From NCBI GenBank assembly GCA_965248265.1, contig CBDFJF010000002.1:3395052-3459051 (forward strand): DNA of 64,000 nt, given 5' to 3'. Made by a program: the position numbers and the translations under genes. Shown piece by piece: positions 1 to 32,714 of the stretch. Below the pieces are notes generated by a model. It worked only from the letters and a program-made list of their open reading frames with translations, made no database searches and was not told where the DNA came from. Position 1 is the first letter of the stretch, and each line of letters begins with the position of its first letter. The stretch comes from Candidatus Latescibacterota bacterium. Its GTDB lineage: Bacteria; Latescibacterota; UBA2968; UBA8231.

Positions 1-1
1 C

Positions 2-184
2 GAACGCATGAAGGAGAAGGTGGAAGAAGAAGAAGCGCTGGCCGAAGCCTACGGCGACATGGCTGACGCCTCCACGTCCGTGGATGACGAGATCGATCGC
101 GCCCTGGCCGGCGGCAGCACGGCCAAGGCGGACGACTCATTGGCCCAGCTAAAGGCCAAAATGGGGTTGGATCAGGGTAGTTGA
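2..184 (+). CDS. PspA/IM30-family protein, C-terminal fragment (5' end outside window)
   Basis: In-frame coding run ending TGA 182-184. The acidic coiled-coil tail ...[27 protein letters not shown]...[10 protein letters not shown] resembles PspA/YjfJ C-termini. Confidence 0.5.
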
Positions 185-302
185 TTCACCAACATCCCCG
201 CGCTATGCCATCGGCTTCTGGCGTCGCCGGACGATCTGACACTCCTAGCACTCCACCTGTTTTCTCGTGCAGACGATTGCTGATTCAGCATTGGCCTGAC
301 AC

Positions 303-1982
303 ATGCCATCACTGAGTCGCCGCCGGTTCCTGCAATTGACCGCGGCCGGCGGCCTGTGGCCACTGGCCTGCGAACGCCCCTCGCATGTAACTCGCCGATC
401 CTTCGACATACCGGGTACCTTTGCCGATGCCAACCTGGCCGAGCGCGGCCATCTGCTGCGCCGGGAGAGCATGAGGCATTGGTTCTCTATTCCGGCGGCA
501 GCGGGCCGGGTCTGGGATGTCGTCGTTGTGGGCGGGGGCATCTCCGGACTCACGGCCTGCTGGAAGTTGCGAAGGATGGGCATCGAGCGTGTCCTGCTGC
601 TAGAGTTGGCTTCTCAACTCGGAGGGACTTCCTCGTCCGGATCGACGGATGGCCATGCCTTCCCCTGGGGAGCGCACTACATAAACATTCCTCCACCCGA
701 AGCGGATTGTATCCATGAGATTCTCACGGATACAGAAGTCATCAGCGGCTACGACGCGGCGGGTCGACCGCTCGTCGATCGGGAGCACATCCTGCGGTGG
801 CCGCGAGAGCGGCTGTACCAGGAAACGTGGACCGAAGGACTGGAGCCCTTTCTCGGAGCGCCGAAGTCGGAGGTCGAGGTCTATCAGCAGTTCGAGGACC
901 AGATGCTGCAGTGGACCCTGTATCGAGGGAGGGATGGACGCAAGGCGTTCGCCATGCCACTGGACTACAGCACCACCGACGCCGCCGTACGAGAACTCGA
1001 TTCGATCTCCATGCTCGAATACCTCCGGGCCCAGGGATGGAGCTCTCAGCGGCTGGACTGGCTAGTGGATTACGCCTGTCGTGACGATTATGGCAGTCGA
1101 ATCACAGAAGTCTCGGCCTGGGCAGCCATCCACTACTATGCTTGCCGGCGCTATGATGCGCGTGTTGCTGATGAGTACCCATCAGATACACTCACCTGGC
1201 CCGAAGGAAACGCCTTTCTGGCCAGACGACTGGCCCGCGACCTCGACCCGGATGGCTGTCGCCTCGACACTGCCGTGGTAGCGATACGCAATGATGCTGG
1301 AGGATGTGAGCTGGCCTGCGTGCGATGGCCAGGTCTTGAAGCTGAGCGCGTTCGAGCGAGGAGCGTCGTCTATGCCGGGAAACTGCACGGCCTTCCCTAC
1401 GTCCTCAGGGACCTCCCGGACGTTCAGCGGCGCTCCCTCACCAACATGGGCTACAGCCCCTGGTTGGTGGCCGCCATTCACGTCACATCCCTGCCGGGGG
1501 AGGAATCGGGAACGACCGTGGCCTGGGACAACATTCTCTACGACAGTGCTTCGCTGGGGTACATCGTAGCAGGCCATCAGCGGGCACCCCGCAATGGAGC
1601 CGGCGAGGTCCTCGTGTACTATCTGCCGATGAGTGAGAGCGAGGGCCGTCAGCTGTTGTTGACGCGCTCCCATGCGGAGTGGGTCAACCTCATCATGAGC
1701 GATCTCTCGCGGGCACATCCCCAGTTGGAAGATTCGGTCGAGCGCATCGATCTGTACCGGTGGGGACACGGCATGGTCCGTCCTGTTCCCGGATCGATAT
1801 TCGGTCCGGATGCCGACCAGCGCCGTACCCCGGTCGGGGCTGTTGCCCTGGCCTCTTGCGACGTGACCGGGCTGCCGCTATTCGAGGAAGCTTGCTACAG
1901 CGGCGTCAGGGCGGCTGAATGGTGCGCCCGCCGTCTGGGTGCTTCATTCGAAACCTCCTTGAAAGGTCTGCAGCGTGCCTGA
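303..1982 (+). CDS. Tat-exported FAD-dependent oxidoreductase (amine oxidase / phytoene-desaturase-like)
   Basis: N-terminal twin-arginine motif SRRRFLQL. Dinucleotide-binding motif VVVVGGGISGLT...LELASQLGG. 559-aa ORF. Confidence 0.8.
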   Translation: MPSLSRRRFLQLTAAGGLWPLACERPSHVTRRSFDIPGTFADANLAERGHLLRRESMRHWFSIPAAAGRVWDVVVVGGGISGLTACWKLRRMGIERVLLLELASQLGGTSSSGSTDGHAFPWGAHYINIPPPEADCIHEILTDTEVISGYDAAGRPLVDREHILRWPRERLYQETWTEGLEPFLGAPKSEVEVYQQFEDQMLQWTLYRGRDGRKAFAMPLDYSTTDAAVRELDSISMLEYLRAQGWSSQRLDWLVDYACRDDYGSRITEVSAWAAIHYYACRRYDARVADEYPSDTLTWPEGNAFLARRLARDLDPDGCRLDTAVVAIRNDAGGCELACVRWPGLEAERVRARSVVYAGKLHGLPYVLRDLPDVQRRSLTNMGYSPWLVAAIHVTSLPGEESGTTVAWDNILYDSASLGYIVAGHQRAPRNGAGEVLVYYLPMSESEGRQLLLTRSHAEWVNLIMSDLSRAHPQLEDSVERIDLYRWGHGMVRPVPGSIFGPDADQRRTPVGAVALASCDVTGLPLFEEACYSGVRAAEWCARRLGASFETSLKGLQRA

Positions 1983-3537
1983 CGCCGAAGGCCAGGAGGT
2001 CCGTGAGCCAGGGGTGGGTGGAGATATTTCTCGCCTGGGCTTGGCGATGTTGTTGGCTGCTATCTTTGCCGCAGCCGCCTGCGCCATTGTCTACGAGCTG
2101 CTGATCGGTGCGGTCTCCTCGTATTTCCTCGGTGACAGCGTCGAGCAGTTTTCGCTGACGATAGGATGTTTTCTGTTTGCCATGGGCCTTGGATCGTGGG
2201 CTTCCAGACTCATCCATGGCAATCTGATCGAGCGTTTTGTCGGTCTCGAAATCGCGCTTGGATTGGTCGGGGGATTGACGGTACCCGCCCTGTATCTGGC
2301 GTATGCCTACACCGACCACTACCGGTTCGTCCAGATTGCCGTCATCCTCATCATCGGTAGTCTGATCGGACTGGAACTACCGCTGTTGACGCGCATCTTG
2401 CGCGGGTGCGGCAGCCTGCGGACGATTCTGGCGAATGTGCTGTCGCTGGATTACTTCGGATCCCTGGTCGCGGCCCTTCTCTTCCCGTACCTGCTGCTGC
2501 CGCTTCTGGGGGCCTTCCACACGTCGCTGGCTACCGGGGCGCTCAACGCCATCATCGGCTTGGTGCTGCTGATCGCCGTTCGCACGCTGGTGCAACCCGT
2601 GGCCGGACTGGTTCTGGGCATCGGTGGGGCCGTCATCATAGCCGTGCTTGGTTTGCTGCTGCTGAACGCGGACGCCCTGCAGGAGCGTTGGGAGGCGTCC
2701 CTGTACACGGAAACCGTCGTCCACAGCGAGCAGACCCGCTACCAGAAAGTCGTGCTCACCCAATGGCAGGACGAATTGCGGTTATACCTGGACGGCCACC
2801 TGCAATTCTCATCTGCTGATGAATACCGCTACCACGAGTCCCTGGTCCAACCGGCCATGGCGTTGACGCGATCGCGCGAGCGTGTGCTGGTAATTGGTGG
2901 TGGGGACGGACTTGCGGTCAGAGAGGTCCTGAAACATTCGGATGTGCTCGCAGTCGAGGTCGTCGATATCGATCCAGCAGTGACTCGCCTGGCGCGCCGC
3001 GATTTGCGCCTGACGGCGATCAACGAAAACGCGCTCAACTATCCCAAAGTACGTATCTTTAACCAAGATGCGTTCGCGTTCCTGCAGCGTTCACATGTGC
3101 CCTACGGCGTGATCATCATGGATCTGCCCGATCCCCGTTTCGAGGCGTTGGCCAAGCTGTATTCGGTGGAGGGCTACCGACTTTGCCGCAGGCATCTGGC
3201 GGTGGGAGGGGTTGTGGTCACTCAGGCGACGAGTCCGTATTATGCCCGCAGGACGTACTGGACCATCGCAGCTACCCTGGAGGCGGCGGGTTTCGAGGTT
3301 TTTCCGTACCATGCTTATGTTCCGTCATTCGGCGAATGGGGTTTTCACCTGGCCGCGCTGCGGAAGATCGATCCGGTCCGGATAAGAGTTCCAGTTGCGG
3401 GTCGTTTTTTCGAGGAGTCCATGTTCAAGCACATGCTTCTCTTTCCAGATGATATGCGGCGGGTCGATGTCGAGGCGAACCGCATCGACAGACCGCACAT
3501 TGCGCGCCATTATCGCGAGGATTGGAGCGCCTGGTAA
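1975..3537 (+). CDS. membrane-anchored spermidine synthase-like (polyamine aminopropyltransferase family) protein
   Basis: Polytopic N-terminus followed by a SpeE-like AdoMet fold with VLVIGGGDGLAVREVLKH...VEVVDIDPAV...IIMDLPDP. GTG start overlaps the upstream stop by 8 nt; ATG 2046 is an alternative start. Confidence 0.8.
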   Translation: MPDAEGQEVREPGVGGDISRLGLAMLLAAIFAAAACAIVYELLIGAVSSYFLGDSVEQFSLTIGCFLFAMGLGSWASRLIHGNLIERFVGLEIALGLVGGLTVPALYLAYAYTDHYRFVQIAVILIIGSLIGLELPLLTRILRGCGSLRTILANVLSLDYFGSLVAALLFPYLLLPLLGAFHTSLATGALNAIIGLVLLIAVRTLVQPVAGLVLGIGGAVIIAVLGLLLLNADALQERWEASLYTETVVHSEQTRYQKVVLTQWQDELRLYLDGHLQFSSADEYRYHESLVQPAMALTRSRERVLVIGGGDGLAVREVLKHSDVLAVEVVDIDPAVTRLARRDLRLTAINENALNYPKVRIFNQDAFAFLQRSHVPYGVIIMDLPDPRFEALAKLYSVEGYRLCRRHLAVGGVVVTQATSPYYARRTYWTIAATLEAAGFEVFPYHAYVPSFGEWGFHLAALRKIDPVRIRVPVAGRFFEESMFKHMLLFPDDMRRVDVEANRIDRPHIARHYREDWSAW

Positions 3538-3550
3538 AGGCACAATTGGT

Positions 3551-4120
3551 ATGGGATTAGGCAAGTGGTTGAAGCGGGGGAGGGGCGATCAGGATGACGA
3601 GGTCGTCGGCGAGTACACTCTGGTTATGATGAAGCCCGGTTTTCTCGTGGACTTCGATCTCAAGACCTGGCAGGTGATCGCAAAGAAGGAGTACGACTAC
3701 GAGGGCGACCGGGCCATGGAATGGGAACTGCGTGCTGAAGGTGAAGTCCGCTTTCTGGAACGCTCGGAGGATGACGGCCGGGTCGAGCTGACTCTCACGC
3801 GTAGTGTATCCATCCGTGACTTCGATGAGGATGTGATGGGCACGATCCTGGATGAGGATGACCCGCCCGAGGTCGTCCATCTGTCCGGGGGTGAGTACAC
3901 GGCGATCGAATCGAGTACGGGCACCCAGAGGGATGGGGAGAAGGAAACCGAGGACGCGGATACCGACAACGGCCGCGACTTCGTCAGTTGGACCTATGAA
4001 TCGGAAGACGGTCATGTAGTGTTCGTTCTGCGTTGGGGCGATCGCGATTTTTCTGCCTACGAGGGTGAGTATGTTGAAGAGTACCAGTTCACGGATATTC
4101 TCCCGGCCACATTGTCTTAG
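3551..4120 (+). CDS. DUF4178-like protein
   Basis: Acidic roughly 190-aa ORF beginning MGLGKWLK. Its position after the SpeE-like gene matches the known DUF4178/DUF350/spermidine-synthase association. Start chosen downstream of the SpeE stop. Confidence 0.55.
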   Translation: MGLGKWLKRGRGDQDDEVVGEYTLVMMKPGFLVDFDLKTWQVIAKKEYDYEGDRAMEWELRAEGEVRFLERSEDDGRVELTLTRSVSIRDFDEDVMGTILDEDDPPEVVHLSGGEYTAIESSTGTQRDGEKETEDADTDNGRDFVSWTYESEDGHVVFVLRWGDRDFSAYEGEYVEEYQFTDILPATLS

Positions 4121-4217
4121 GTGGCCGCAGCCACACTGTCCTAAGTGGCAGCAGCCACGCCGCACTGAGTCGATCTCATCGTGTCGTGCGCGCAGGGCCA
4201 TTCTGCTCGCATCATCG

Positions 4218-4898
4218 ATGCTGCTGCTGATGGGGATCCTGGGGTGCGGTCGTGCGCCGGATCCAGTGCGGGATTTGAGCCGGGACCTCGGTCGATATCC
4301 AGAGTACTCCCTCATCATCGACGATCTGAACGTGGAGGACGGGTTCTTCCCCGATTACTTCATGCGCTTCCGCCTGTTGACGGCCTCGGGGCAGCGCGTG
4401 GCAGGGGTGGACACACTAATTTATGAGACTCGAACGACGGAGTGGCAGGAGGTCAGCGAGGAGGTTTTTGCACGGTATCAACACTACCTGGGCATGGTCG
4501 TTGCAGCCAAGGGCGCTGATGGAAAGCGCACTGGCTTGCAGCAGGCGCATCCGCCCGGATATCAATACGTCGGAAACTCTAACTACGGCTACTGGGGTGG
4601 GGGTGGTTTCTGGGCCTTTTACGGGCAGTACGCCTTCATGAGCAGCATGCTCGGCGGCCATCAGATCGGACGCCAAGATTACGGAAACTACCGTCGTTCC
4701 GGCGACGGGGGACGAGCTTATTTCGGTCCAAACAAGAACGGACGTCCAGCCTTTGGCACTCGTGGCAGCGTTACGCAGAAGACTAAACCACAATTCTATC
4801 AGCGTTACCGGCAGCGGATGAGTTCTTCCGGCAGGGGATTCGGGAGCAGGGGGACGACGAGCACCAGTCGCTCAGGCTCGCGACGGTTTGGAAAATAG
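4218..4898 (+). CDS. putative lipoprotein with Gly/Tyr-rich C-terminal region (start uncertain)
   Basis: Lipobox-like LLMGILGC followed by a GYWGGGGFW...SGRGFGSRGTT tail. In-frame ORF extends upstream to 4065 with no clear start. Confidence 0.4.
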   Translation: MLLLMGILGCGRAPDPVRDLSRDLGRYPEYSLIIDDLNVEDGFFPDYFMRFRLLTASGQRVAGVDTLIYETRTTEWQEVSEEVFARYQHYLGMVVAAKGADGKRTGLQQAHPPGYQYVGNSNYGYWGGGGFWAFYGQYAFMSSMLGGHQIGRQDYGNYRRSGDGGRAYFGPNKNGRPAFGTRGSVTQKTKPQFYQRYRQRMSSSGRGFGSRGTTSTSRSGSRRFGK

Positions 4899-4932
4899 GA
4901 TCGCACGATCGTGAACTGGATAATCGGAGGCG

Positions 4933-5787
4933 ATGTCAATGAATGAAGAGTTGTGGATGGCGATGGCGCGCTCGGCAGTCTACCTGCTGGAGGCCTTCGT
5001 GCTTCTCTGGATTGCCAAGGTTGCCTACACCGGTGTATACCGTAAGGCACAGCTCAAGGTGGAGTTGTTCGACAAAGCGAATGTTGCCCTTGCCATCTCT
5101 ACAGTCGGTTACATGCTGGGCATCGTCATCGCTCTGGGCGGCATACTGAGCAGCCCGTCGACGGGATGGCAAAGCGATCTCACCGGGATTGCCCTGTACG
5201 GCGTTGCCACGATCGTGCTGATGCTGATCGCGAGTTTTCTGTGTGAGAAAATACTGCTGCCCCAATTCAACAACACCAAGGAAGTGGTCGAGGATCACAA
5301 CCTGGGGACGGCCTTTGTGGAGGCCGGCATGCACATCGCCAACGGTCTCATCCTGCTGTCGATCGTGCAGGGCAGCGGTCCGTGGTGGGTCGGCCTCGTG
5401 TTCTGGGCGTTGGCACAGATCGTGTTGTTGATCGTCGGCTTGCTCTACGAGTTCACGACGGCACACAAGATCCACGAGGAACTCGAGCGTGACAACGCGG
5501 CCGTCGGCCTTGCCTTCGGTGGCGTGCTCGTCGGCATGGGCAACATAGTCAGCCTGGCCGTGGCCGGTGATTTTACGAGTTGGTCAGAGAGTTTGACCCT
5601 ATTCGTCGCGGACGCCGTATTCGGCCTTGTCGTCCTCTACATGATCAAGAGGTTGACCGACGCACTGCTTGCCCCGGGAGTCAAGTTGAGCCAGGAGCAG
5701 ACCGCCCAACCGCCCAACACTGGTGCGGGTCTGCTCGAAGCCTTCGGCTACGTGGGCGGCTCGATGCTCGTGGTTTGGGTCTTCTAG
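4933..5787 (+). CDS. DUF350-repeat integral membrane protein (YjfL-like)
   Basis: Three or four repeats of the DUF350 signature, e.g. KANVALAISTVGYMLGIVIAL, DHNLGTAFVEAGMHIANGL and RDNAAVGLAFGGVLVGMG, in a hydrophobic 284-aa protein. Confidence 0.65.
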   Translation: MSMNEELWMAMARSAVYLLEAFVLLWIAKVAYTGVYRKAQLKVELFDKANVALAISTVGYMLGIVIALGGILSSPSTGWQSDLTGIALYGVATIVLMLIASFLCEKILLPQFNNTKEVVEDHNLGTAFVEAGMHIANGLILLSIVQGSGPWWVGLVFWALAQIVLLIVGLLYEFTTAHKIHEELERDNAAVGLAFGGVLVGMGNIVSLAVAGDFTSWSESLTLFVADAVFGLVVLYMIKRLTDALLAPGVKLSQEQTAQPPNTGAGLLEAFGYVGGSMLVVWVF

Positions 5788-5790
5788 GTC

Positions 5791-6807
5791 GTGATCGTTT
5801 GGCTGCCACTGATTCGCGTATGGCGCCGGCTGAAAGGATACTCGCTCCTGTGGATAGCGCTGCTATCCGTGAGCTTGATTCTGATCGGTGGGCTGCTGTT
5901 CAGTCTCGTGGAGGAGGGGCGCTCGATCGGGGACGGCATCTGGTGGGCCGTGGTGACGACGACGACGGTCGGGTACGGCGATATGTACCCGGAAACCGAG
6001 TTTGGCAGAGCCGTCGGCGTCGTGCTCATGGTCCTCGGGATCGGTGTTCTGGGTGGATTCACCGCCGAATTAGCCACCACCATCATAGCGCGCCGCTCGC
6101 GCCGTGACAGGGGCCTCAAAGCCGTGAATGCCAACGATCACATCTTGATCTGTGGTTGGAATGACACCGGCGAAGACCTGGTCAGGAATCTGCTGGCAGA
6201 TCGTCGGGAGCCGTCCCTCGTCCTCCTGGCCAACATGGATCATTCCCCTCTGGACGACGAGCGTCTGATGTTCGTGCAGGGCCCGGTGACTGAGCATTGT
6301 CTGACGATGGCCGGAGCAGATCGAGCCGAGTCGGCGGTGGTTCTGGGAAGTCAGCAGATTGAGGATCTTCAGGGACGTGACGCCAAGTCGCTTATGAATT
6401 CTCTGACGATCAAGCAACACAACCCGGACATCTACGTATGTACCCAGCTGTTCGATTCTTCCAGCCTGACCAATGCCGAGCTCTCCAGAGCTGACGAGAT
6501 CGTCGTCGTCGGTGCCCTCGCCGGTGGCCTGTTGAGCCGGGCTGCTCTGGACCACGGTAGCTCCCGGGCGATTTCCAGTCTGGTGCGGACTGAGGAACAG
6601 TGTGAGATCTACCGGGTGTCTGTGCCCACTTCATGGGTCGGCCGCCGCTTCGGCGCGTTGCTGGAAGAAGCCAAGACCCAGGCGAATATTCTACTGGTGG
6701 GGGTCGAATCCGCCGCTGGTGATCTGGTGCTGAATCCTCCGGGGGATAGTGTGCTGGGAGAGCGGGACATGGTTGCCGTTATCGCCAACCAGCGCCCCCA
6801 CCTGTAG
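5791..6807 (+). CDS. two-TM potassium channel with C-terminal RCK/TrkA-N domain (MthK-like)
   Basis: Selectivity filter TTVGYGD followed by an RCK fold ([18 protein letters not shown]...). GTG start at 5791. Confidence 0.85.
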
Positions 6808-6844: not shown

Positions 6845-7198
6845 TCAGCCAGTCCCGACCTCTCTGTCGATCCACTGGAGATACGGTTCGCTGCCATGCG
6901 CTACGGGGACGGCGATGATCGCCGGGACCTCGTAGGAGTGCAGCGTCACTATTCTCGCCTCGACCTTCTCATACAGATCATCCCGTGTCTTGAGGACACA
7001 CTGCCATTCGGTGGCCTTCTCTATGCGCCCCTGCCACCAGTAGACGCTGTCCATGGGACCGATTACCTGTGCGCAGGCGGCCAGGCGCTCGCGCACCAAC
7101 GTGTCGGCTATGGTCGTTGCCAATTCGGCGCTGTCCGTCATCGTGGTTATCCGAACGATCTGGATGGAGCCGTCCAAGATGGAGTCCTTTTCATTCAC
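6845..7198 (-). CDS. cutA: divalent-cation tolerance protein CutA
   Basis: IVRITTMTDSAELATTIADTLVRERLAACAQVIGPM...YWWQG...VLKT...HSYEVPAIIAVPV aligns with CutA1. GTG start at 7198; the listed long ORF has a non-coding N-extension. Confidence 0.8.
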   Translation of the reverse strand: MNEKDSILDGSIQIVRITTMTDSAELATTIADTLVRERLAACAQVIGPMDSVYWWQGRIEKATEWQCVLKTRDDLYEKVEARIVTLHSYEVPAIIAVPVAHGSEPYLQWIDREVGTG

Positions 7199-8204
7199 CT
7201 GTGCGGCGCCGGCGAAGCAGCAACAGGGCCGGTACGGAGAGGCCGATGTACAGAAGATTCGCGAGCGCGTGCACGGCGGTGGCGCAGGCCAGGGCGGCGG
7301 CGGCAGGCACGGCGAACAATAGCAACAGGGACTGGCTGAAGAGGAAATGGTATGGTCCCGTACCACCCGGAACCGGCGCCACTATCCCGAGCGAAGAGAT
7401 CGCCATGATGACGAGGGCTTCGGACGCCCCAAGGTTGTAATCGGTGTGAAAACCGAAGGCGATAAAGCCCTCGTATATGATGAGAATGTAGCCGGCGTTG
7501 AGCAGCACCGAACTGAGGAAAATCTCGACATAGGCGGACGGGGTATGGAGTGCTTCCAGGCCGTGCGCGAACTTGCTGAGCGCATCGACGACGGCACTGG
7601 AGATGCGCGGAGTGAGAGGTTGCAGAATCCGCTGAACAACCTTCAGCGCGCGATCCCGGTAGATGGACACCAGTGTAAGTAAAGTCAGGACTGCGACGCA
7701 GGCGGCGAGAGCCACCAAAACCGCAGGTCCCATCCAGGGCCCCATCCAGGGGAATGCCAGCTCCATGCGAGTACGCAACAACAGCATCGAGATGCCGACG
7801 AACAGGATGAGCCAAACCATGTCGATGATGCGCTCGACGACGACGGTGGCGGCGGTAGACCCCATGCTTATCGTGTGGCGCCACCTGAGGCTCAACACGC
7901 GCAGCGCTTCGCCCGATCTCGGTAGAAAGAAGTTGGCGCCATAACACAGGGCCAGTGCCTGCGACGCCTCCAGGACCGTCACGGATGTCGTGAACGGGCG
8001 CATCAGCACAAGCCAGCGCCAAGCTCTGAGGACGATGGTAATCAGGGTGGTGAGGACGATGATACCGAGCCACACCGGCGAAACCTGTTGCATGGCCGCC
8101 CACAAGGTGTCTGCATCGATATCCCGGAAGGCCCAGTACAGGAACAGCGCCATCAGGCCGAAGCTGATGGCGTAGCGCAAGGCCTGTTGGATGCGTGAAT
8201 TCAA
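7191..8204 (-). CDS. UPF0104 family membrane protein (lysyl-PG synthase TM-region / flippase-like)
   Basis: 337-aa polytopic protein with the typical UPF0104 length and topology. Overlaps the cutA start by 8 nt. Confidence 0.55.
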   Translation of the reverse strand: MNSRIQQALRYAISFGLMALFLYWAFRDIDADTLWAAMQQVSPVWLGIIVLTTLITIVLRAWRWLVLMRPFTTSVTVLEASQALALCYGANFFLPRSGEALRVLSLRWRHTISMGSTAATVVVERIIDMVWLILFVGISMLLLRTRMELAFPWMGPWMGPAVLVALAACVAVLTLLTLVSIYRDRALKVVQRILQPLTPRISSAVVDALSKFAHGLEALHTPSAYVEIFLSSVLLNAGYILIIYEGFIAFGFHTDYNLGASEALVIMAISSLGIVAPVPGGTGPYHFLFSQSLLLLFAVPAAAALACATAVHALANLLYIGLSVPALLLLRRRRTGE

Positions 8205-8240
8205 ATGAGGCAGATGCCAGACGGGACGACTAAGGGGTAC

Positions 8241-8627
8241 TCAGGCGTAGACCTCATCCGGGTCGAAGACGCGTTCCTCGGCTTCCGACCATGTCTGGGT
8301 GCTCTCGTCCCAGGTGCGGTAGTAGCAGGAGTAATATCCGGCGTGACAGGCGGCGACTTTTTGCTCCACGCGGATCTCGAGGGAGTTGCCATCGCAATTG
8401 GCGCGAACTTCGGTAACCTTTTGGATGTGCCCGGAAGTCACACCCTTTTGCATGACCTCGCCCTTGGAGCGCCGGTAGACGTAGACGACGCCTTCAGCGA
8501 CCGTGCGCTCCAGGGCTTCGCGATTGAGATAGCAGAGCACCAGTATCCGGGTGCTGTGAGCATCTGTGACCACAGCCGGGATCAAGCCATCGGCGTTAAA
8601 TTGAACTCGATCAGCGATCGACATCAC
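8241..8627 (-). CDS. hisI: phosphoribosyl-AMP cyclohydrolase
   Basis: DGLIPAVVTD...CDGNSLEIRVEQ...CHAGYYSCYY is a monofunctional HisI signature. Confidence 0.85.
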   Translation of the reverse strand: MMSIADRVQFNADGLIPAVVTDAHSTRILVLCYLNREALERTVAEGVVYVYRRSKGEVMQKGVTSGHIQKVTEVRANCDGNSLEIRVEQKVAACHAGYYSCYYRTWDESTQTWSEAEERVFDPDEVYA

Positions 8628-9350
8628 TCACCCTATTTTTTTTCGCTGTTCCAACATTTCGATGATGGTGGCCGCCGCTTCCTCGGGTGTGCAAGATCCC
8701 GTTTGGATCTCGAGTTCGGGATTGAGCGGCTCCTCGTATGGATCCGAGATGCCGGTAAAATTGGGGATCTCTCCGGCACGTGCTTTCTTGTACAGCCCCT
8801 TCGGATCGCGCTCTTCGCACATCTCCAAAGGAGTATTGATGAAAACCTCCAGAAATTCGCCTTCGCTCAGCAAGGCACGGACCTCGTCGCGGTCACCTCG
8901 ATAGGGACTGACGAAGCTCGATAGCGTGATCACGCCGCTGTCGGCGAACAACCTACCAACTTCCCCGATGCGCCGGATGTTCTCGGCGCGATCCTCTTCG
9001 GAAAAGCCCAGATTCTTGTTGAGGCCATGACGGATGTTGTCGCCATCCAGGACATAGGCAAGATGCCCGCGTTCGACCAGAGCGTGCTCGACGGTGAAGG
9101 CGATCGTGCTCTTGCCCGAACTCGGCAATCCGGTCAGCCAGACCAGCACGCCTTTCTGGTTGAGCAGGGCTTCGCGCTGGTCGCGCTGAACGTGACCTTC
9201 ATGCCATACAATGTTGGTGGCCTTAACTTGCGTTGACAACAGGGATCTCCTCTCGATGACACGGTCCCATGCTGCTGCATCGTCATCGGTTTCCGCAGTT
9301 GCGTTTTTGTTCGGAGGTGGCTGATGACGGCATGGACCGGAGTGTGACAA
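8628..9350 (-). CDS. cysC: adenylyl-sulfate (APS) kinase with roughly 45-aa N-terminal extension
   Basis: P-loop VWLTGLPSSGKSTIAF plus the APS-kinase core (DGDNIRHGLN...). Start may be downstream of 9350. Confidence 0.85.
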   Translation of the reverse strand: MSHSGPCRHQPPPNKNATAETDDDAAAWDRVIERRSLLSTQVKATNIVWHEGHVQRDQREALLNQKGVLVWLTGLPSSGKSTIAFTVEHALVERGHLAYVLDGDNIRHGLNKNLGFSEEDRAENIRRIGEVGRLFADSGVITLSSFVSPYRGDRDEVRALLSEGEFLEVFINTPLEMCEERDPKGLYKKARAGEIPNFTGISDPYEEPLNPELEIQTGSCTPEEAAATIIEMLEQRKKIG

Positions 9351-24109: not shown

Positions 24110-24186
24110 GAGCTATTAGCTCAGCTGGATAGAGCGCTAGCCTCCGGAGCTAGAGGTCACAGGTTCGAATCCTGTATAGCTCGCCA
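24110..24186 (+). tRNA. tRNA-Arg (anticodon CCG)
   Basis: Manual cloverleaf: acceptor GAGCTAT/ATAGCTC, anticodon loop CTCCGGA, T-loop TTCGAAT, 3' CCA. Confidence 0.9.
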
Positions 24187-24199
24187 TCTGTCGACAGGT

Positions 24200-24276
<77 letters not shown>

Positions 24277-24385
24277 TCGTTTAGTGAGATTGGGCTAGGA
24301 TTCGTCGACAAAGAGGATTCCTGGCCCATTCTTCGTTCACGTACACGTTCACGGACATGGTTGGTAGGCTGGAGGGTAGGTACGT

Positions 24386-24463
24386 CGGGGTGTAGCGCAG
24401 TCCGGTTAGCGCACCTGCTTCGGGAGCAGGGGGTCGGCGGTTCGAATCCGCCCACCCCGACCA
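24386..24463 (+). tRNA. tRNA-Pro (anticodon CGG)
   Basis: Acceptor CGGGGTG/CACCCCG, anticodon loop TTCGGGA, T-loop TTCGAAT, 3' CCA. Confidence 0.9.
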
Positions 24464-32639: not shown

Positions 32640-32714
32640 GCAACGGTAGCTCACTGGTAGAGCATCAGCCCTGAGAGCTGAGTGTAGCGGGTTCAATTCC
32701 CGTCCACTGCATCC
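32640..32714 (+). tRNA. tRNA-like element (degenerate; possible phage tRNA pseudogene)
   Basis: Canonical D-arm TAGCTCACTGGTAGAGC, perfect anticodon stem TCAGC/GCTGA, T-arm GCGGGTTCAATTCCCGT. Acceptor has 2 of 7 mismatches and C at position 33. Confidence 0.3.

Follow-up and report, generated by a model that had tools for sequence, protein, structure and literature searches.

PspA/IM30/Vipp1 proteins are the ESCRT-III-like membrane-repair machinery of bacteria, and little is understood of their partners beyond the classical Psp system. This report concerns an operon at the left end of a 64,000 nt stretch of a Latescibacterota genome (the window; contig CBDFJF010000002.1, nt 3,395,052–3,459,051), in which the 3' end of a pspA gene is followed by genes for polyamine-type enzymes and membrane proteins. 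The closest described systems are those of Ravi et al. 2024 (mSystems; PMC11237479), who reported CesT/Tir-PspA operons with a seven-transmembrane (7TM) spermine/spermidine-synthase fusion, an 8TM YjfL/DUF350 protein, a 'Ctha_1186' lipoprotein and a DUF4178 protein, and variants with an RCK-type K+ channel, S-adenosylmethionine decarboxylase (AdoMetDC) or a polyamine oxidase. Two of their contexts, those with a DUF2170 protein, are confined to Proteobacteria, and no data are available on the function of the operon type (PMC10948618).

The locus is a member of this published class of CesT/Tir-PspA operons with a membrane-bound aminopropyltransferase. It carries four components of group 2 of Ravi et al., namely a PspA/IM30 gene, a 7TM-Spermine_synth fusion, two DUF350 stretches and a DUF4178 protein that has no export signal. 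Both the operon type and its interpretation have already been published, and the locus is a compositional variant that confirms and refines them rather than a discovery. An earlier note on the window had proposed that PspA and polyamine-modifying enzymes act together in an envelope-stress or 'polyamine homeostasis' system; the association is supported, and Ravi et al. draw the same inference for the operon class (PMC11237479), but as an idea it is not new, and the homeostatic role is something that we infer. The variant differs from those described in belonging to a different superphylum, in having a CesT_Tir_1 chaperone instead of DUF2170, and in its SpdH-like flavoprotein with a twin-arginine translocation (Tat) signal, its K+ channel and its upstream J-domain partner.

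The Shewanella oneidensis SO_3765-type operon (group 2) includes a lipoprotein built of LipoSIG, Ctha_1186 and low-complexity parts, an 8TM DUF350 protein, a TM-fused Spermine_synth protein, a CesT/Tir-like chaperone, PspA and DUF4178. The window holds counterparts of all of these save the chaperone, which is seen in relatives upstream of the position of the window edge; the 'Ctha_1186' and window lipoproteins are likened by architecture, not by sequence. The gene order is different, as is the host (Proteobacteria, as against the phylum Latescibacterota of the Fibrobacteres–Chlorobi–Bacteroidetes (FCB) group). In addition, the window class has a CesT_Tir_1/YbjN chaperone in place of DUF2170, lacks the ribbon-helix-helix (RHH) regulator, and adds the SpdH-like Tat flavoprotein, the RCK K+ channel and the upstream J-protein, with AdoMetDC in some relatives.

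The comparison made in the earlier note was with yjfIJKLMC of E. coli (group 3), and it is correct according to RefSeq: yjfI (DUF2170), yjfJ (PspA family), yjfK, yjfL (DUF350), yjfM and yjfC (peptide-spermidine ligase). This operon likewise combines a CesT/Tir-like protein (YjfI) and a PspA-family protein (YjfJ) with DUF350 (YjfL), a lipoprotein and a polyamine-modifying enzyme, and the published description of the group also lists a ligand-sensing K+ channel (PMC11237479). Its enzyme, however, is the ATP-grasp protein YjfC, described as a peptide-spermidine ligase (Pederick et al. 2023, as cited in PMC11762307), rather than an aminopropyltransferase or oxidoreductase, a difference that the note had rightly pointed out. 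The E. coli operon also has a single 4TM DUF350 unit, and DUF2491 and DUF1190 where the window has DUF4178 and an orphan lipoprotein. No genes for a YjfC-type ligase, DUF2491 or DUF1190 were found in the window or its relatives, and an hhalign comparison of the window lipoprotein family with YjfM gave a probability of 2.4%, with no homology beyond the signal peptide.

A cluster on plasmid p1 of Novosphingobium sp. ES2-1, the band-7 variant mentioned by Ravi et al., encodes an SPFH protein, two DUF4178 proteins, DUF350, a 7TM-SpeE protein (44% identical to that of the window), a homologous FAD oxidoreductase (38% over 523 residues) and the AdoMetDC SpeD. It differs in that SPFH/band-7 stands in place of the CesT-PspA dyad, in that its DUF350 protein is a half unit of 69 aa, and in lacking a lipoprotein homologue and a K+ channel. 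With the classical pspF-pspABCDE system of E. coli the locus shares the PspA/IM30 effector, but its relatives have no PspB, PspC or PspF beside pspA and carry a CesT-like chaperone and a J-domain protein instead.

Operon structure and linkage in relatives

Nucleotides 1–6807 of the window are an uninterrupted run of co-directional genes on the + strand (Table 1), tightly spaced as had been noted. In order from pspA, the junctions are a 118-nt gap, an 8-nt overlap, a 13-nt gap, a 50-nt overlap, a 34-nt gap and a 3-nt gap before the channel gene, and a promoter and terminator scan found nothing, including no terminator-like site, in these intergenic junctions. The 5' end of the unit is cut off by the window edge. 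Its other end lies at 6807, as the next genes (CutA1, LPG_synthase_TM) are convergent; the earlier note had closed the module at 5787 and so missed the K+ channel. Profile searches placed each reading frame in the family proposed for it: the end of a PspA/IM30 gene, a membrane-anchored spermidine-synthase-like protein, a DUF4178-like protein and a multi-repeat DUF350 protein. The Gly-rich lipoprotein, which had been named without a family, matches none in Pfam or NCBIfam. Two gene starts (DUF4178 and the lipoprotein) were refined from the DNA and homologues.

Table 1. Features of the operon in the window.
Feature	Position (nt)	Strand	Basis or remark
pspA 3' end (60 codons + stop)	2..184	+	PspA/IM30, ESCRT-III-like membrane-remodelling protein; cut by window edge
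SpdH-like FAD amine oxidoreductase, 559 aa	303..1982	+	Amino_oxidase 62.6 bits, NAD_binding_8 53 bits
Tat signal peptide (S5-R-R-R-F-L-Q) up to conserved Cys23	303..371	+	Motif and Cys conservation among homologues
7-TM polyamine aminopropyltransferase, 520 aa	1975..3537	+	PRK03612 609.5 bits, Spermine_synth 119.6 bits
GGGDG dcAdoMet-binding motif, transferase residues 308-312	2896..2910	+	Aligned to GGGEG of 7xif/3anx
D-L-P-D-P catalytic/amine-binding motif, transferase residues 383-387	3121..3135	+	Aligned to DLTDP of 7xif/3anx
DUF4178 protein, 189 aa	3551..4120	+	DUF4178 62.4 bits
Orphan lipoprotein	4071..4898	+	Lipobox Cys; no Pfam or NCBIfam match
DUF350 (YjfL-family) integral membrane protein, two repeats, ~8 TM	4933..5787	+	DUF350 144.1 bits, hydropathy
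2-TM K+ channel with cytoplasmic RCK/TrkA-N domain	5791..6807	+	Ion_trans_2 60.8, Slo-like_RCK 35.9, TrkA_N 27.7 bits
TVGYGD K+ selectivity filter, channel residues 59-64	5965..5982	+	Read from translation

An exact-protein look-up of the window reading frames and of the 100% identical protein P0121 returned no contig on record, and the context upstream of the window edge was taken from a close relative (L001, a 621-kb contig), the proteins of which are 93–98% identical to those of the window. Its gene order is a small DnaJ-domain protein, a CesT_Tir_1/YbjN protein, a 238-aa PspA, six further operon genes and a convergent CutA1. A Gemmatimonadaceae-labelled metagenome-assembled genome (MAG; L002) has the same ten genes and, behind the channel, a 122-aa AdoMet_dc gene (142 bits). 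The genes at the left end of the window make up most of an operon of about ten genes from a Latescibacterota-like bacterium, and this operon is real and strongly conserved.

Conservation was surveyed by scanning one genome per species with the lipoprotein alignment and annotating the components by tblastn. The survey was seeded with the lipoprotein, and its counts apply to the 65 species-level loci that it returned, mostly from Latescibacterota, with others from MAGs labelled Gemmatimonadota, Handelsmanbacteria and Planctomycetota, and four from Calditrichota/KSB1. DUF4178, the lipoprotein and DUF350 occur together in 65/65 loci, accompanied by the transferase in 63, PspA in 59, the CesT-like chaperone in 57 (immediately upstream of pspA), the oxidoreductase in 57 (54 of the 60 assessable), the J-protein in 50 and AdoMetDC in 9 of the 65. 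The co-occurrence of DUF4178, lipoprotein, DUF350 and partners far exceeds chance. The order in relatives is J-domain protein, CesT/Tir-like chaperone, PspA, SpdH-like flavoprotein, 7TM-aminopropyltransferase, DUF4178, lipoprotein, DUF350 and K+ channel, sometimes followed by AdoMetDC.

The Calditrichota/KSB1 loci have the genes in another order (DUF4178, lipoprotein, DUF350, transferase, K+ channel, J-protein, CesT, PspA), yet keep all of them linked. Sub-modules were also found on other replicons, among them those of Alpha- and Betaproteobacteria: besides the Novosphingobium cluster, the pair of 7TM-SpeE and oxidoreductase is retained on Ralstonia and Gemmatirosa replicons, and AdoMetDC, DUF350 and transferase on an Ensifer replicon. 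Because the genes stay together through the reshuffling in Calditrichota/KSB1, in the Novosphingobium cluster and in the sub-modules of Ralstonia, Gemmatirosa and Ensifer, the linkage appears to be functional and not merely inherited. Much of the conservation nevertheless reflects shared ancestry, since the unrelated downstream genes for LPG_synthase_TM and adenylylsulfate (APS) kinase are also syntenic in ~51 loci. A tblastn search of plasmids with the DUF4178 protein gave no match. The neighbourhood, which the earlier note had expected to be conserved, is kept in related and unrelated genomes alike.

The polyamine-type enzymes and the presumed helpers of PspA

The transferase consists of seven predicted TM helices (residues ~20–230) and a SpeE-type catalytic domain (247–520), and its NCBIfam match (PRK03612) is to be compared with a cutoff of 472 bits. 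Its AlphaFold2 (AF2) model has a mean confidence (pLDDT) of 89.3 and a predicted template-modelling score (pTM) of 0.74. The motifs GGGDG, VDID, QD and DLPDP align with those of 7xif/3anx and are invariant in 44 homologues, as are D383, L384, D386 and P387 individually. In polyamine aminopropyltransferases, the Asp residues of this D-x-x-D pattern deprotonate the attacked amine and bind the distal amine. The closest solved relatives are 7xif (E 1e-33), the triamine/agmatine enzyme of T. thermophilus (1uir/3anx, E 1e-30) and the plant thermospermine synthase 6bq2 (E 6e-27), and the spermidine synthases of E. coli and human are weaker matches (~1e-18). As the motifs are intact and enzymes of the thermospermine/triamine type are closest, the protein is very probably an active aminopropyltransferase of the 'long-acceptor' type that uses decarboxylated S-adenosylmethionine (dcAdoMet).

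The N-terminus of the flavoprotein (MPSLSRRRFLQL) contains a twin-arginine motif (SRRRFLQ). The pattern [ST]RRxFL recurs in most of 19 aligned homologues and corresponds in the alignment to TISRRDFL at the N-terminus of SpdH, the spermidine dehydrogenase of P. aeruginosa, and a Cys follows ~20–25 residues past the motif in 17 of the 19. Since both the Tat motif and the downstream Cys are conserved, the flavoprotein is probably a Tat-exported lipoprotein. The Amino_oxidase match covers residues 80–539 (profile positions 1–440 of 443), GGGxSGL is conserved in the homologues, and the FAD oxidoreductases beside 7TM-SpeE in Novosphingobium and Ralstonia are 38% and 32% identical to it, respectively. 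An exported FAD enzyme of the amine-oxidase kind had been proposed at this position; the family and the Tat motif hold, whereas 'SpdH-like dehydrogenase' describes the enzyme better than 'amine oxidase'. SpdH is the closest solved relative (E 1.4e-9 with the single sequence, 6e-15 with the family profile). The invariant His50 (window 450–452) aligns with His54 of SpdH, which together with His562 ligates a heme b at the surface of that enzyme (PMC12564564). A search for the second ligand with the C-terminal 130 aa of the flavoprotein gave noise only, and the invariant His489 (RWGHxM; window 1767–1769) is a candidate only.

The nearest described parallel for such a pair of enzymes is in P. aeruginosa. 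SpdH bears a strong Tat signal, and its export by that route is predicted. In the proposal of Li et al. 2024 (PMC11107197), the thermospermine-type transferase SpeE2, the class-1b AdoMetDC SpeD2 and periplasmic SpdH act jointly to give norspermidine on the cell surface under cationic-antibiotic stress. The two window enzymes are nearest to the transferase and dehydrogenase of this trio (SpeD2-SpeE2, PA4773-PA4774; SpdH, PA3713), and by analogy the operon type would physically link the same three kinds of activity. In P. aeruginosa, however, the transferase is soluble (349 aa), spdH is unlinked, and no PspA, DUF350 or DUF4178 genes are involved; the similarity of SpdH to the window flavoprotein is also remote.

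The PspA fragment in the window matches PspA_IM30 with E 9e-6 (profile positions 168–217 of 220), which is under the Pfam cutoff only on account of the truncation at the window edge. Its identity to the C-terminus of the L001 PspA is 98%, and the full L001 protein scores 157 bits with PspA_IM30. The chaperone encoded upstream of the window edge in L001 is of the CesT_Tir_1/YbjN type (CesT_Tir_1 143 bits), not DUF2170. Directly upstream of CesT-PspA, and outside the window, lies the gene for a J-protein of ~110–130 aa with an HPD motif (Pfam DnaJ 33 bits; L001 ~4590–4963, L004 4374–4835, L067 14741–15091). It begins with an amphipathic motif, M-x-[LI][LF]-x-R-[LI][FYW]-x-x-x-R-A, present in all 52 loci examined (e.g. 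MDLLGRIFRVVRAH and MSLFDRLSKIVRAEL), which resembles helix α0 of the neighbouring PspA (MAGIFQRLFKTGQAEAH) and is followed by a low-complexity linker and the HPD J-domain. Gene callers frequently set the start of this gene too late. The main text and supplement of Ravi et al. 2024 (PMC11237479) contain no DnaJ, J-domain or Amino_oxidase in this operon context.

In Chlamydomonas, assembly and disassembly of VIPP1 involve its transfer to HSP70B by the J-protein CDJ2 (PMC10602608), and the bacterial J-protein may, by analogy, be a counterpart of CDJ2-HSP70B acting on VIPP1. Like the CDJ2-HSP70B-CGE1 system, it would be a J-domain protein dedicated to a PspA-family polymer, as its position next to CesT-PspA suggests. 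It differs in being only ~110–130 aa long and in its PspA-helix-α0-like N-terminus.

A proposed role in envelope maintenance and competing readings

The reading that we hold to be probable, though with considerable reserve, is that of a PspA-centred envelope-maintenance operon in which a membrane aminopropyltransferase and exported SpdH-like trimming provide an envelope polycation pool. It builds on what is demonstrated for the locus, i.e. gene content, family membership, intact catalytic motifs, export signals and linkage conserved across phyla. Under envelope stress, PspA would seal or remodel the cytoplasmic membrane from the inside, and the CesT-like and J-domain/DnaK helpers would handle PspA. 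The 7TM transferase, co-expressed with PspA, would transfer the aminopropyl group of dcAdoMet to a di- or polyamine-type acceptor at the membrane, and the product would reach the outer face of the cytoplasmic membrane. There, the Tat-exported and probably lipid-anchored SpdH-like flavoprotein would cleave or trim it, in parallel to the thermospermine-to-norspermidine route of P. aeruginosa, and the outcome would be a locally controlled polycation pool to shield the anionic surfaces of the envelope. Of the conserved partners, DUF350 (8TM) may serve in the membrane, the lipoprotein in the periplasm and DUF4178 in the cytoplasm, with roles in transport, scaffolding or sensing, and the RCK K+ channel may offset the accompanying charge or osmotic shift. 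We infer the acceptor, the product, the direction of flow, the induction by stress, and the roles of DUF350, DUF4178, the lipoprotein and the channel.

Several observations weigh against this scheme. An experimentally established function for the operon type was not found in the literature. The oxidoreductase is absent from 6/60 assessable loci, the K+ channel is patchy (19/62 assessable loci, in the same position), and the similarity of the flavoprotein to SpdH is partial, being limited to two stretches (1–114 and 317–398; 57.9 bits with the profile); because only these two stretches align, the flavoprotein is a distinct sister family and not an SpdH orthologue. Membrane-fused proteins resembling spermidine synthase reportedly failed to complement an E. 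coli speE mutant, and their hosts are said to lack spermidine, which would favour an unusual acceptor. No AdoMetDC gene was detected by tblastn in the 64-kb window, so that the donor supply is unseen here, and genes of the AdoMetDC fold can neofunctionalise to arginine or ornithine decarboxylases (PMC10407285).

A further difficulty is the topology of the transferase. Applied to the loops of its TM domain (window 1975–2700), the positive-inside rule places the N-terminus inside and the catalytic domain in the periplasm, which conflicts with cytoplasmic dcAdoMet. Over 44 homologues, the mean number of K+R is 2.95, 2.93 and 1.64 in loops 2, 4 and 6, which lie on the N-terminal side, vs 0.07, 0.89 and 0.07 in loops 1, 3 and 5, which lie on the side of the catalytic domain; an acidic segment follows TM7, and homologues from Proteobacteria, Gemmatirosa and Calditrichota show the same bias. 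Seven TM helices are obtained in the AF2 model if the 54-residue helix 148–201 is a hairpin, and this segment has two hydropathy peaks, an invariant Pro176 in a PxLG turn and a nearly invariant Gly179. If it were to cross the membrane once, the catalytic domain would be cytoplasmic and the positive-inside rule still satisfied. A periplasmic domain would share its compartment with the flavoprotein and the lipoprotein, so one can picture an add-and-trim chemistry outside the cytoplasm, directed at an envelope component and supplied with dcAdoMet carried across by the 7-TM domain or by DUF350. We regard this arrangement as unlikely.

The acceptor may also be something other than a free polyamine. 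If the transferase aminopropylated the head group of a membrane lipid or a protein of the envelope, such as the co-encoded lipoprotein in its invariant Gly/aromatic segment or its basic tail, and the flavoprotein acted as the eraser, the operon would encode a covalent surface-modification system beside PspA. Ravi et al. allow for 'aminopropylation of other substrates' (PMC11237479). The catalytic domain is fused to the 7-TM domain with a confident relative orientation (by pTM), the invariant C-terminal half of the lipoprotein has no predicted fold, as for a bound or modified segment, and the ligase of the cousin operon in E. coli performs covalent chemistry between peptide and polyamine. The membrane-fused proteins, which reportedly do not make spermidine, point the same way. 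Both D-x-x-D Asp residues are, however, invariant in the transferase family, the nearest solved transferases all use free polyamines or agmatine, and the nearest solved relative of the flavoprotein uses free spermidine or spermine. To our knowledge, lipid- or protein-aminopropylation has not been described in bacteria, and we consider a covalent system rather unlikely. The reverse weighting of the components, in which the polyamine enzymes are the main point and PspA with its helpers is an accessory that services the operon's own cargo, easing the membrane stress or Tat saturation that comes with the insertion of several polytopic proteins and the export of a folded flavoprotein rather than acting as a general stress effector, is very doubtful. 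In its favour, the gene for a Tat substrate lies directly behind pspA in 54 of the 60 assessable loci, and PspA is known to relieve an overloaded Tat pathway and VIPP1 to improve transport through it (DeLisa 2004; Lo and Theg 2012, as cited in PMC10948618 and PMC10602608). Yet the versions in Calditrichota/KSB1, L032, L052 and Shewanella keep PspA without the Tat flavoprotein, and SPFH in the place of PspA in Novosphingobium suggests a membrane-organising rather than a Tat-specific role.

An ordinary polyamine island, with a housekeeping spermidine synthase and a catabolic oxidase lying by chance beside an unrelated pspA, is hard to reconcile with a linkage that outlasts the reshuffling in Calditrichota/KSB1 and recurs in Gammaproteobacteria and, with SPFH for PspA, in Alphaproteobacteria. 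The genes overlap or are a few nt apart, with no terminators between them, those for DUF350, DUF4178 and the lipoprotein would be out of place in a plain metabolic island, and housekeeping SpeE enzymes are soluble. The NCBIfam equivalog name of the transferase, 'polyamine aminopropyltransferase', fits such an island, as does the synteny of unrelated downstream genes (LPG_synthase_TM, APS kinase) in Latescibacterota, by which part of the conservation is shared ancestry; even so, we judge a chance neighbourhood to be highly improbable.

The interest of the operon type is that it couples PspA with an aminopropyltransferase that sits in the membrane and, at this locus, also with an exported SpdH-like enzyme and a K+ channel. 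Its carriers belong to several phyla, namely Latescibacterota and allies, Calditrichota/KSB1 and Proteobacteria, and in mycobacteria it is presumably represented by Rv2597-Rv2601. The target of the transferase and the side of the membrane on which it acts could reveal a new way of conditioning the envelope chemically during stress; in P. aeruginosa, related polyamines at the surface influence how well cationic antibiotics are tolerated. Among the versions compared here, that of Latescibacterota is the most complete, and it points to a J-domain/DnaK handle on PspA and to polyamine trimming by a heme-flavoprotein as testable ideas. For work on the enzyme pair, Ralstonia is a tractable organism.

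Other components and flanking genes

The DUF4178 gene starts at ATG 3551. Its product has no signal peptide, TM or hydrophobic segment and is presumably cytoplasmic, and neither it nor the DUF350 protein has a solved relative at E<=1. The two stretches of DUF350 are accompanied by ~8 hydrophobic segments in that protein. The channel has the layout expected of an MthK-like, RCK-gated 2TM channel (N-terminus inside, two TM helices, P-loop, cytoplasmic RCK domain), and the rearranged version of Calditrichota/KSB1 has it too.

The lipoprotein gene appears to start at ATG 4071 (MLKS...), inside the 3' end of the DUF4178 gene. This N-terminus is common to P0001 and P0005 but not to more distant homologues, and it results in an unusually long (~59-aa), basic region before the Cys; the lipobox Cys itself is invariant in 22 aligned homologues. 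The signal peptide is followed by an α+β N-domain of ~90 aa, an invariant Gly/aromatic-rich segment (QAHPPGYQYVGN..YG.WGGGGFW.FYGQYAFMS.MLGG) and a basic C-tail. The protein has the architecture of the 'Ctha_1186 + low-complexity' lipoprotein of the published operon. Its family counts 687 clusters. Some relatives (P0419, P0422, P0464, P0488, P0503 and others) are 430–560 aa long and have the conserved C-terminal half (profile ~77–235) at their end.

Downstream of the operon, at 6845–9350 on the – strand, are the convergent CutA1 gene and those for LPG_synthase_TM (MprF-flippase-like, 337 aa), PRA-CH and APS kinase. LPG_synthase_TM was considered as a functional partner and rejected: in the ~51 loci where it adjoins the operon, the housekeeping APS kinase always accompanies it, and neither the AdoMetDC-bearing nor the Calditrichota versions have it. 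Its presence therefore reflects lineage synteny. An Rfam scan of the 64 kb returned four tRNAs only, three of them clustered, at 24110–24460 and 32640–32711.

Two of the proteobacterial replicons have further genes near the transferase. On the Ralstonia solanacearum megaplasmid (L069, 1429–1818 and 6899–10112), the host of which is a plant pathogen, the 7TM 'speE1' is directly followed by a Tat-motif 'amino oxidase' (32% identical to that of the window), and a stand-alone DUF350 gene lies ~5 kb from this pair on the other strand. On a plasmid of Ensifer sp. PDNC004 (L071), a 78-aa reading frame (8666–8902) that has no Pfam match lies directly upstream of the 7TM aminopropyltransferase. Its product has one TM helix and a Gly/aromatic tail (...GYGYSGHGGSSSGSSRWYWGG), which recalls the YGxWGGGGFW motif of the window lipoprotein.

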